Shown: piece by piece, positions 27,848-51,293 of the stretch | How positions within the stretch are numbered: the first letter of the stretch is position 1 | How the letters are laid out: each line of letters starts with the position of its first letter | Assembly (NCBI RefSeq): GCF_006345805.1 | Contig: NW_021832426.1 | Location: forward strand, 1-59,663 | Direction of reading: 5' to 3' | Source of the DNA: Octopus sinensis | Lineage: Eukaryota | DNA: 59,663 nt | Made by a program: the position numbers and the translations under genes | The notes under the pieces: model-generated | The model's input: only the letters and a program-made list of their open reading frames with translations | Database searches by the model: none | What the model was told of the DNA's origin: nothing

Positions 27848-28075
27848 ATGGCTAACAACCAGATATCTCTGACCACTGCATCGAATGCCATAGACATGGC
27901 TTTGCAAAAAGATGAAGTAGAAGAATTCTCGCTATCGTCTTCTAAGGAAATGGAAGGAGCAGGAAAATTTTCAGCAGGACTATTGGGTTCTGGTGAGGCA
28001 CTGTTCAAATATAAAGAGTCGATAACTTTCACTGTTAAAAAGAAAGGCTCGAACCCAAAATATATCCACCAGTGA
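27848..28075 (+). CDS. Candidate 75-aa microprotein (tandem family member 1), function unknown
   Basis: MANNQISLTTASNAIDMALQKDEVEEFSLSSSKEMEGAGKFSAGLLGSGEALFKYKESITFTVKKKGSNPKYIHQ. TTTTCAG acceptor at 27822-27828, ATAATGG start context and AATAAA at 28446. A positional paralogue lies at 51123-51293. Confidence 0.6.
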   Translation: MANNQISLTTASNAIDMALQKDEVEEFSLSSSKEMEGAGKFSAGLLGSGEALFKYKESITFTVKKKGSNPKYIHQ

Positions 28076-28842
28076 AAATATCTTCATATAATGCATGAAA
28101 AATTTTCCAGTGTTCTTTATTTGAAGATATACAACGTTTCTTTTCCTCAAGCTTTTTTTACCTTATCCTATAAACACGATTTTATAACTCAAGATTTATC
28201 TTGAAATTATTACATCTGTCACTTAGGTGCCAAATATTCAATTATATAAAGCAATAGTCTTTAACCATTTTCTACATATAAACCTCTTTGATTACTGTTC
28301 TTTCCAGCTGAACCTCCATGGCCATTCGATGTTTGGAAATTAGTTTTACAGACACTTGTTTCAGAATTCCTATTTTGTTTGTCACACATTAACTTGTGTT
28401 AAGTTGAACTATGTAAAACGTCAGAGGAAGAAACCTGTTTCTTACAATAAATATATCTAAAGTAACATCTTTTCGTGGTCCCTTAAAATGCTATTGTGGG
28501 TCCTCAATTTACTATTTTCTTGTTGGACACCCAAAAGTACGGAATCCCAACGGTCATATGGACTTCGGTTGAGAACCAATGATATCCAGGTTGAATATGA
28601 ATAGTAAAAAATAAACATATTAACATAAAATATTGTTCGTCTCCATTGATGTTTAATATTTGATGTCTGTCTCTCTTGATTTCTTAAGAAAGAAGCTATC
28701 CGAAAAGAAATAGAATTTCATACAAACAAAACTACAGACATAGATTGAAAAGTTCACACAGATTCACAAACACACAACAATAATACACATACAAGAAAGC
28801 CTCACGGAACTGATATACGAATGGTTGTGTCGTCAGAAATGA

Positions 28843-29142
28843 CTTGGCTTTGCTCGGCTCGGCTCGGCTCGGCTCGGCTCGACTCGGCTCGGCTCGGCTC
28901 AGCTCGGCTTGGCTCGGCTCGGCTCGGCTCGGCTCGGCTCGGCTCGGTTCGGCTCGGCTCGGCTCGGCTCGGCTCAGCTCGGCTCAGTTCGGCTTGGCTC
29001 GGTTTGGCTCGGCTCGGCTTGGCTTGGCTCGGCTCGGCTCGGCTCGGCCCGGGTCGACTCGGCTCGGCTCAGCTCGGCTAAGCTCGGCTCGGCTCGGCTC
29101 GGCTCGGCTCGGCTCGGCTCGGCTCGGCTCGGCTCGGCTCGG
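28843..29142. repeat. (GGCTC)n pentanucleotide microsatellite
   Basis: Seen directly; source of the SARLG pseudo-ORFs. Confidence 0.95.
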
Positions 29143-29552
29143 TTTCCGATCGAGTGGCAAAGTGCAGACTAGTTTATGTATGTGTGTGACGCAGAACAAA
29201 AGACTTCTTACACTTTTGAAATACGATGACTAAGTAAACTAGGTCTGTGTATCCCTCGTCAGCTAACCGGTTTTCGGTTTGATCAGAAAGTTGCCCTCCG
29301 CTTGTCATTGAACAAGAAGAATTACTAGTGAACCTAGACACAACCAGGAAACAAAATAAAATTTAAGCGCCACAAATACATTTTTTTTTTGTATTAATTG
29401 ATATAAATCATCTCAATTTGTTAAAAAGAATATGACAATACTGTGAAGCTTGATTCCTATTGGTTGCATTCAATAAAGCCATGTACGTATAGAGAGTGAT
29501 GGTTATACCCTCGTTACGGAGAGTTCATTCTGCAGTGAGAGTGTGTGTGTGT

Positions 29553-29740
29553 CGGGCGAAATGCTTAGCAGTATTTCGTCTGCCTTTACTTTCTGAGTTC
29601 AAATTCCGCCGAGGTCGACTTTGCCTTTCATCTTATCGAGATCGATAAAATAAGTATCAGTTACACACTGGGATCGATGTAATCGACTTATTCCCTCCCC
29701 AAAAATTGCTGCCTTTGTGGAAAAATCTGAAACCATTATT
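29553..29740 (+). mobile_element. SINE family C, older variant
   Basis: GGGCGAAATGCTTAGC...TTCAAATTCCGCCGAGGTCGACTTTGCC. Confidence 0.75.
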
Positions 29741-29997
29741 ATTGGTGGTGGTGGTGGTGGTGGTATTTTACGCTAATATCTCAAATGACAAATGGTGTTT
29801 GCTTCTGCTTTTAAAAAAAATTGTTGTAACATAAACATTGAGTGAAAGGCACTTACTTTTGTTTATGTTACGTAAGAGTCAAATAGACAGTTGTTAAGCA
29901 GTCGTTTAAAGATGGTAGAAAATTTCTCTCAAAATACAACCTTTCGTTGTAACAATACGGGAAAAACACATACAATATAAGTTGCTAAACTGTCTCC

Positions 29998-49119: not shown

Positions 49120-49950
49120 TCTTTCTCTTTTACTTATTTCAGTCATTTGACTGTGGCCATGCTGGAGCACCGCCTTCAGTCGAGCAAATCGATCCCAGGA
49201 CTTATCCTTTGGAAGCCTAGTGCTTATTCTATCGGGGTCTTTTACCGAACCGATAAGTTACGGGAACGTAAGCACACTAGCATCGGTTGTCAAACGATGC
49301 TGGGGGACAAAAACAGATACACAAACATATATATATATATACGACGGGCTTCTTTCAGTTTCTGTCTACCAAATCCACTCACAAGGCTTTGGTCGGCCCG
49401 AATTTATAGTAGAAGACACTTGCCCACTGAACCATGTGGTTGGTAAGCAAGCTACTTACCGCTCCACACGGGTACAAATATAGAAAAAAATAGGAAGTTG
49501 AAAATATACCGAGAATAGGTAAAAAAAAATTTATTATACTCTTTACTCTTTTACTTGTTTCAGTCAGTTGACTGCAGCCATGCTGGAGCACCGCCTTCAG
49601 TCGAGCATCTCGACCCCGGGACTTATTCTTTGTAAGCCTAGTACTTATTCTATCGGTCCCTTTTGCCGAACCGCTAAGTGACGGGGACATAAACACACCA
49701 GCATCGGTTGTCAAGCAATGCTAGAGGGACAAACACAGACACACAAACATACACGCAAACATATATATATATATATATACATATATACGACGGGCTTCTT
49801 TCAGTTTCCGTCTACCAAATCCACTCACAAGGCTTTGGTCGGCCCGAAGCTATAGTAGAAGACACTTGCCCCAGATGCCACGCAGTGGGACTGAACCCGG
49901 AACCATGTGGTTCGTAAGCAAGCTACTTACCACACAGCCACTCCTGCGTA
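49120..49950 (-). mobile_element. Two adjacent SINE family A copies (49120-49470, 49538-49950)
   Basis: Both match the reverse complement of family A. Confidence 0.85.
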
Positions 49951-50349
49951 ACCGGTTTCACAGTAATTGACACTGATTTTCAAAGGCTGAAGTAGAAAGA
50001 CGTTGGTTATGCTGCAATTGTTTTACTTCTAACTTGTGTTTGAAGCTTGTCGTATTCTTATAGTGTACAAGGCTCAAATTAGCAAATGTTTTGGATAGGA
50101 TTTGATTCCTAGCGGATAGTTACATGATTGGTCTTATAAACTTTTGTTGGTTCCTCGCTAATTTTTGATTTAAAGTTTCCTTCGATTTTAAATATTATGG
50201 TTTTAAATCGTAATATTAATTTTATATAACCGGTTATTGAAAAGACCGTAAGTGGAAAAGACCGATGAAACAAAACCAATTTCAAATGTGTATCTATTAA
50301 TGTAATAGTATATTTTTTTGTTCCATTCTCAACCAAAACTGTCCGACAC

Positions 50350-50940
50350 ATATATGTATGTGTGGTGGGGGGTGAGTGAGTGTGTGTGTGTAAGCGTATG
50401 TGAGTGTGTGCATGTGTGTGTATGTGTGTGTATGTGTGTGTATGTGTGTCTATGTGTGTCTATGTGTGTGTGTAAATGTATGTATGTATGTATGTATGTA
50501 TGTATGTATGTATATGTGTGTTTGCACGCTGGACGAAATGCTTAGCGGTATTTCACCCGTCGCTATGTTCTGAGTTCAAATTCCGCCTTGGTGTGTATGT
50601 GTGCGTGTGTGTGGGCGTGTGTGGATATCTGTGTAATATGTGTATGTATGTATGAAGGTACATATATACATACATATATATATATATATATATATATATA
50701 TATATATATATATATATATATAATATATATATATATAGATAGATAGATATATAGATATGTATGTATGTGTATGCATTTATTTATATTTATATATATATAT
50801 ATATATACATATGAGTTGGTATATGTGTGCGTGCGCGTGTGCGCGTGCGCGTGCGTGTGTGTGTGTGTGTGAGTGTGTGTGTGTGTGTATGTGTGTGTAC
50901 GTATCTATGTGTGCCTGTGCTTGTGTTTGTGTGTGTGCGT
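50350..50940. repeat. Mixed (TG)n/(TA)n microsatellites with a SINE C fragment at 50525-50588
   Basis: Seen directly. Confidence 0.9.
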
Positions 50941-51122
50941 CGTGATTTAGAAGTACACTTCGACTACATCATTATATATATAACCGTTTACAAGAAAGAT
51001 TGATAAGAATTCTGCGCAATATATATTTATATTATGGATGGAATTTTTTTCTTAGAGCTACTACAATCGATTTTTCATTTCAGATATATCCTTTGCTGGC
51101 CGGAAACGAAAATTAGTGGAAA

Positions 51123-51293
51123 ATGGAGTCGTCGAAAGAAGTACAGAAATCATCCGATGCAGGAGACGTCTCTGGAACTAAAACTAGTGAATCGTCAATC
51201 AAAGGCAATCTTTCAGCCACTATCAGAGACGGTATCTCTGCAAACGTAGAAATCAAATCGAAACAGGAATTAACATTCTCATCAAAAAAATAA
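51123..51293 (+). CDS. Candidate 56-aa microprotein (tandem family member 2), not in the ORF track
   Basis: Own translation: MESSKEVQKSSDAGDVSGTKTSESSIKGNLSATIRDGISANVEIKSKQELTFSSKK*. TTTCAG acceptor at 51078-51083, in-frame upstream TAG at 51114, AAAATGG context. Flanks are homologous to those of 27848-28075. Confidence 0.55.
   Translation: MESSKEVQKSSDAGDVSGTKTSESSIKGNLSATIRDGISANVEIKSKQELTFSSKK

Follow-up and report, generated by a model that had tools for sequence, protein, structure and literature searches.

The 59,663-nucleotide Octopus sinensis contig NW_021832426.1 (referred to below, at its full length, as the window) carries two small open reading frames (ORFs) on its plus strand, ORF1 (27848-28075, 75 amino acids, aa) and ORF2 (51123-51293, 56 aa), which together with a third copy outside the window make up a real, undescribed and mis-annotated Octopus small-ORF family. 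An initial annotation of this DNA had proposed a duplicated, lineage-restricted family missed by annotation, and this proposal stands: by exact look-up, 0/3 family proteins are present in a collection of 15 billion proteins, and the sole homologue recovered is a chimeric gene model from O. vulgaris. The family is very probably coding, and its short proteins show a predicted amphipathic beta-hairpin that invites comparison with the membrane-inserting stems of pore-forming proteins.

Gene plan and members of the family

The two ORFs lie in collinear units on the plus strand that share four DNA blocks at 66-91% identity, and these blocks and the coordinates confirm that two intact ORFs sit in duplicated units. 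As first described, each ORF follows a TTTCAG acceptor (27823-27828 for ORF1, 51078-51083 for ORF2) and has A at -3 and G at +4 of its start. The accompanying claim that both occupy the same position in their units did not hold: the TTTCAG of unit 2 pairs with a TTTAAG at 27798 of unit 1, whose own acceptor is offset 25 bases downstream, and the ATGs are not positionally homologous, that of unit 1 lying upstream of those in the other copies. The features of the two units are as follows.

22925-23000, plus strand: unit 1, predicted non-coding exon 1, aligning with its counterparts in unit 2 and in the third paralogue
23001-27828, plus strand: unit 1, predicted repeat-filled intron ending in TTTCAG, from the sequence and from read contigs at 27828/27829
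27848-28075, plus strand: ORF1, opening at the first AUG in the predicted mRNA; X1 and X5 contigs cover it
28076-28615, plus strand: unit 1, predicted 3' untranslated region (UTR), with AATAAA at 28446 and 28610
46105-46171, plus strand: unit 2, core promoter and predicted non-coding exon 1, with motifs common to the third paralogue
46172-51083, plus strand: unit 2, predicted intron ending in TTTCAG, from the sequence
51123-51293, plus strand: ORF2, from the first AUG of the predicted mRNA, with an in-frame stop just upstream
51294-51635, plus strand: unit 2, predicted 3' UTR, with AATAAA at 51630
22977-23137 and 46148-46313, plus strand: paralogous block, 66% identity
24033-24346 and 47832-48153, plus strand: paralogous block common to both introns, 66% identity by DNA alignment
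27674-27810 and 50949-51090, plus strand: paralogous block, 67% identity, E 6e-10
28755-28785 and 51730-51761, plus strand: paralogous block, by DNA alignment

A genome search with ORF1 recovered the third paralogue, an ORF of 86 aa at G000:C23:12791137 (L002:1504; hereafter the C23 gene), which is 43-45% identical to ORF1 (E 2.6e-5) with an alignment score attained by 0 of 5000 shuffles. The likeness between the ORF1 and ORF2 proteins themselves is at chance level (local score attained by 539 of 5000 shuffles), so their paralogy rests on the DNA and on the third paralogue. The 7 of 18 identical residues first reported for their C-terminal 18-mers are exactly counted and fall under this same chance-level score; the GKFSA and GNLSA reported ahead of that block are present, and are joined to it only across a 2-residue gap. 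The C23 ORF reaches 86 aa because it reads on into a microsatellite. It was also observed that the 3' UTR block of unit 1 has no counterpart at the C23 ORF (L002:1681-1764) and that the GCTTG microsatellite adds a 27-residue hydrophobic tail.

All copies appear to follow a common predicted plan, in which a short non-coding exon ending at a GTAAGT donor is followed by a long intron and an exon with the ORF at the first AUG. In unit 2, TATATAA stands at 46105, an initiator-like TTAGTT at 46134 and the donor at 46172; the same three motifs, with TTAGTT about 30 bases beyond the TATA box, recur in the C23 gene, the spacing from TATA to initiator being 29 versus 33 bases in this comparison. Unit 1, whose exon 1 has an inferred start and a GA microsatellite inside, retains the exon end and the GTAAGT donor (at 23001) with a decayed TATA box; the TATA box is thus intact in 2/3 copies. 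The predicted leader holds no ATG in 3/3 copies, so that the family ORF starts at the first AUG. All three copies have fewer than 100 codons, a first-AUG start, and promoter and splice motifs, as orphan small ORFs do; as a control, when 905 random acceptor-like sites were taken from 500 kb of C23, 70 opened a 56-codon ORF at the first AUG. The intron block at 24033-24346 was considered as a concealed part of the gene and rejected, as its first half is an old dispersed repeat; its second half is confined to the two units.

The intron of the C23 gene contains a decayed copy of exon 1 (L008:7371-7462, with no TATA box and the donor lost) and 3'-UTR-like remnants (L002:309-911). These remnants, which have no coding exon between them, likely represent a lost fourth unit; no fourth coding copy was found in the window and 500 kb of C23, or by a DNA search of the genome. 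Together with the missing 3' UTR block of the C23 gene and the decayed TATA box of unit 1, they would also fit a reading in which the ORFs are decaying fragments of a larger gene, pore-forming or other, that are still transcribed and have no function today. We regard this as very improbable, given that a promoter or exon 1, a first-AUG ORF and a stop are present in every unit, and that 1293 longer candidates included no credible relative.

Searches beyond the three copies returned little. ORF1 had no match among 5.8 billion proteins, and Pfam gave no match for ORF1 or ORF2 at E 10 or for the C23 protein at E 0.01. A three-member profile run against 1.84 billion representatives returned 2 proteins at E 0.001; the repetitive 736-aa P0002 (E 1.3e-6) was rejected as compositional or chance, as was P0004 (E 0.19). 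The remaining protein, P0001 (CAI9739307.1 / A0AA36BTA5), is an unnamed predicted protein of O. vulgaris, the only member of its cluster, encoded on a 50.6-Mb contig. It opens like the family, with 35 of its first 36 residues those of ORF2, but then quits ORF2 early, and its later parts correspond to exons 1 and 2 of the C23 gene read in a different frame. By this mapping P0001 is evidently a chimeric gene model in which the start of ORF2 is joined to the C23 gene. This implies that in the O. vulgaris assembly both lie on one strand with ORF2 upstream; the two thus likely belong to a single cluster. No homologue was found outside the lineage in these collections, which probably cover small eukaryotic ORFs poorly, and the O. 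vulgaris model was the only credible match. Among the papers searched, which did not include subscription papers and supplements, none held the accessions or the three peptide motifs, and the accessible parts of the topical literature contained no description of the family. In its short ORFs, its lack of outside homologues, its omission or mis-modelling by annotation and the birth and death of its copies, the family resembles other taxon-restricted orphan microprotein families; unlike them, it carries an amphipathic-hairpin signal that hints at a mechanism.

Coding status, divergence and transcription

Net length changes among the copies keep the reading frame: measured from one nucleotide anchor to the next, the copies differ by 9 and 6 bases, and a variant seen in run X5 has a 3-base deletion. 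The differences between P0001 and the C23 gene are also denser in the coding part, where 5 of 14 off-frame residues differ, compared with 5 of 50 in the promoter and leader (p 0.03). In X5, a second, variant contig over 27829-28099 carries 29 other letters and the in-frame deletion at 27975; the single 3' UTR contig of that run shows 7 substitutions, along with a 2-base and a 5-base indel. Provided that the two ORF1 contigs of X5 have the same end 30-mers, which a 30-base overlap with the UTR contig suggests, the differences of the variant would all lie inside the ORF (about 14% versus 1.4%). We infer from these comparisons that divergence is concentrated in the coding sequence, and a coding family under diversifying selection is the simplest joint reading. 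The rapid evolution proposed initially is thus borne out by the X5 variant, by the ratios of nonsynonymous to synonymous differences (pN/pS) given below and by the off-frame differences between P0001 and the C23 gene. The idea, considered in this analysis, that ORF2 is more conserved than the adjacent non-coding DNA was unsupported (35/36 versus 30/33).

Several results weigh against this reading. Purifying selection was not detected, with pN/pS values of 0.92 (0.57-1.55), 0.85 (0.59-1.27) and 0.84 (0.60-1.18) whose bootstrap intervals all span 1; the initial annotation had named a ratio near 1 with frame-breaking indels as evidence against real genes, and the former was found without any net frame-breaking indels. 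Differences between ORF1 and the C23 gene are spread over the codon positions as 17/20/19, and their amino-acid similarity is not above that given by neutral placement of the same substitutions (P 0.14). Avoidance of stops is modest (P 0.14 and 0.045, with 14% and 4.5% of neutral trials free of stops), and the open-frame argument is weakened because ORF1 and ORF2 were picked as open and the C23 ORF by protein similarity, which inflates the counts. The X5 variant, which is known as a count of differences rather than as letters, may itself hold stops.

A spliced non-coding RNA family, whose ORFs have survived by chance, would account for the pN/pS intervals and for the lack of excess amino-acid similarity, as well as for the shifted start codons and acceptors among copies and for the continuation of the C23 ORF into a microsatellite. 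It is nonetheless improbable: three copies that have diverged by 32-47% each keep a same-frame ORF from the first AUG, their net indels are of 9, 6 and 3 bases, and the amphipathy of ORF2, described below, was attained by 0 of 3000 shuffles.

The ORF1 exon or part of it was present in 20 of the 24 listed sequencing runs (7 studies, 4 organism labels); RNA is a guess, made for 15 holder rows, no run being recorded as RNA, and contigs of 4 of the 24 runs were aligned to 22850-28845. Run X1 gave a 570-base contig that matches 27828-28394 throughout and ends, on the acceptor side, in 3 loose letters, and two contigs of X5 begin at 27829; the X1 contig extends into the predicted 3' UTR to 28394 and that of X5 to 28602. 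In the DNA-type run X19, by contrast, a contig continues across the ORF1 acceptor. The stop of X1 and X5, from two studies guessed to be RNA, at the acceptor that X19 runs across gives a weak hint that ORF1 is spliced, and to that extent the check on expression asked for initially was answered, for ORF1 alone. No joint of exon 1 to exon 2 was found among the 15 of 1350 rows listed. Several unique intron bins had zero depth in X1, part of exon 1 being skipped as repeat, and X9, with 0.66 of the words by the index, had no depth over ORF1.

The variant in X5 may be a paralogue with its own UTR (depths 38.9 and 23.2 versus 20). Depth in the ORF1 bin (27850-28049) was higher than in the listed contigs of both X1 (31.1 versus 17.9) and X5 (81.5 versus 62.1), and this excess may reflect further variants. 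X5 also showed a depth of 36.6 at 24050-24249, within the intron block common to both units, which an optional exon or a copy of a repeat might explain. A contig of X19 (organism D) was perfect to 27976 and then gave 8 loose letters (window 27977-28024); this break falls at the predicted hairpin turn and at the site of the deletion in the X5 variant.

Predicted beta-hairpin and likeness to pore-forming proteins

The family proteins have no Cys and a near-neutral charge, and no N-terminal hydrophobic signal stretch was seen by eye. They probably form an amphipathic hairpin, which was predicted at the following positions.

27917-28042, plus strand: ORF1, predicted long beta-hairpin in the AlphaFold2 model, strands 24-38 and 52-65
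51198-51263, plus strand: ORF2, amphipathic beta-hairpin core, residues 26-47, with strict alternation and an RDG turn

The evidence is clearest for ORF2, whose two-strand beta moment was attained by 0 of 3000 shuffles, and by 1-4 of 1500 at five other strand lengths. For ORF1, an AlphaFold2 model from the three-sequence alignment comprised a helix and the long hairpin, with a mean predicted local distance difference test score (pLDDT) of 60, about 70 over the strands, and a predicted template modelling score (pTM) of 0.34. Searches with structures were blank: Foldseek gave nothing at E 0.001 (best E 0.93; a few hemolysin/leukocidin chains, at E of about 2, appeared in a list that also held ribosomal proteins) and the VIA fold search nothing significant (best Z 2.8), and these blank results exclude no family.

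Three sub-threshold leads point towards pore-forming proteins. In the Atlas, the rows for ORF2 included bacterial gasdermin (0.81, 25% of members), leukocidin (0.81, 31%), MACPF (0.78, 12%), ETX/aerolysin (0.78, 41%/19%) and gasdermin (0.78, 76%), and the pore-former rows for ORF1 and ORF2 spanned 0.77-0.81, ranked beneath unnamed or DUF2589 rows. The three-member profile against PDB sequences had its top, non-significant match (E 0.067) at chain positions 286-311 of suilysin, at or adjoining the second transmembrane hairpin (TMH2) by the numbering in the accessible text of PMC4140638, the offset from chain to residue being assumed. The barrel segment of the aerolysin family, as given in the accessible part of PMC4823867, is 75 +/- 8 residues with 23-44% Ser+Thr, close to the whole length of the Octopus proteins. 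These three leads may reflect one sequence pattern and are not independent. Searches by phmmer against PDB sequences gave 0 matches for ORF1 and ORF2, and the rows for the C23 protein, three CheW entries at E 0.4-0.6, were judged to be chance.

With aerolysin, ETX/MTX2 and lysenin, as they appear in the accessible text of PMC4823867, the family shares a predicted hairpin of alternating polar and non-polar residues with Ser/Thr-rich flanking strands, clear in ORF2, but it lacks a receptor-binding domain and the rest of the pore-forming module, the 56-86-aa proteins being whole, ended by a stop and with no upstream coding exon found. Likeness to MACPF/CDC proteins comprises the suilysin match at or adjoining TMH2 (by the accessible portions of PMC4140638 and PMC4381977) and the MACPF Atlas row; unlike these proteins, those of Octopus have no central bent sheet, second hairpin or membrane-binding domain, being too short for a bent four-stranded sheet and two helical clusters (two strands and a single helix are modelled for ORF1). 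Like animal and bacterial gasdermins, they are signal-less and likely cytosolic, and short gasdermin-labelled Atlas clusters were found for both ORFs; they differ in covering, with one hairpin, about a quarter of the 240-position gasdermin model, and in having no sequence match to it (PF04598). Proteins of 56-86 residues leave no room for the scaffold domains, and no profile matched, so the family is placed, as judged from its sequences, outside the aerolysin, MACPF/CDC and gasdermin families. A search for a host parent gene with gasdermin, MACPF and aerolysin profiles gave 0 matches, its controls being detected for MACPF alone and intron-split genes being easily missed; 7 ETX/MTX2 rows and 1 DUF2589 row were weak and were rejected, the 7 of these 8 loci that were translated being low-complexity or unconvincing.

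The likeliest single mechanism, and still a tentative one, is that the proteins are membrane-active and act as a stem-only inserting hairpin. The three-copy family would be translated into signal-less proteins of 56-86 aa, each folding as one amphipathic beta-hairpin; the hairpins would join along their edges into oligomers that enter membranes, working as a stem-only pore-former in the setting of an arms race between host and pathogen. Aim and restraint, which receptor-binding and inhibitory domains would not provide here, might come from mixed-paralogue assembly or from tight control of expression, both of which are guesses. That these would be hairpin-only animal pore-formers, hypervariable between copies and individuals, that form homo- or mixed-paralogue barrels in intracellular defence is a more specific and doubtful proposition.

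Counting against the mechanism, the amphipathy of ORF1 is marginal (attained by 224 of 3000 shuffles, and by 54-250 of 1500 at other lengths), Lys33 and Glu57 lie on its non-polar face, and the amphipathy of the C23 protein is not significant (957 of 3000). The single-sequence model of ORF2 contains a hairpin of 3+3 residues alone (pTM 0.26). Ser+Thr content is 30% in ORF2, and under the aerolysin range at 19% in ORF1 and 14% in the C23 protein. All Atlas scores are below 0.9, with low recognition values and DUF2589 or unnamed rows at the top, and among the ten best named matches 2 share a family.

The low pTM values, by which a hairpin on its own would probably need a partner for stability, would also suit proteins that bind a partner by strand addition to its beta-sheet. 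They might act on a pathogen protein as decoy or inhibitor, or serve in gamete or self-recognition, with this binding driving the fast evolution. Such a role would be consistent with pN/pS near 1 in a kept frame and with the 14%-diverged variant in one run; we consider it rather unlikely, as no partner, tissue or motif was identified and no signal peptide is present for extracellular recognition.

Alternating Ser/Thr/Gly-rich patterns also occur in cross-beta assemblies. The proteins might accordingly stack their hairpins into an amyloid-like or sheet-like intracellular polymer, structural or signalling, that does not cross the membrane, and the Ser/Thr/Gly-rich alternating strands, the absence of Cys, the few Pro, the balanced charge and the ORF1 hairpin model would agree with this. 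The polymer is nevertheless unlikely: divergence concentrated in the coding sequence suits conflict better than a structural role, internal repeats are absent, and the Atlas families listed are mostly pore-formers.

Surroundings of the genes and significance

The two units are separated by a large satellite, and a short core motif, recognized by eye, is common to this satellite, to the unit 1 intron at 23290-23440 and to an array in the C23 intron (L008:1590-3370) whose units are roughly 40 bp long. Around the C23 gene, a gap at G000:C23:12722710-12722809 could accommodate the scaffold of the window, between the C23 paralogue and an exon at L033:3711-4307 (minus strand), about 106 kb upstream of it, which we take to resemble FAF2/UBXD8; the window could not be placed in a gap of C23, no long high-identity overlap being found. 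Other features of the window are listed below.

260-778, plus strand: 172-aa ORF with no Pfam match, presumably resembling the end of a retrotransposon ORF
15201-16303: tandem array, 184 bp x 6 copies, made of a dispersed-repeat piece
18831-19337, minus strand: PIF1 helicase fragment (Pfam Pif1_2B_dom, E 1e-14), presumably a Helitron-type remnant
19589-20610: tandem array, 165 bp x 6 copies
29998-40346, no strand: 80-bp satellite, 129 copies, 96% matches, a 10.3-kb spacer that belongs to neither gene
40789-41313, plus strand: 174-aa ORF with no Pfam match

At the least, these genes constitute an undescribed Octopus family whose coding sequence seemingly changes faster than the flanking DNA, a sign of biological conflict. 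If membrane insertion is true, the family would comprise unusually small candidate membrane-attack proteins, in which a beta-barrel stem works with none of the scaffold domains that known beta-pore-forming families carry, and would offer both a minimal nanopore scaffold and a new effector for cephalopod immunity.

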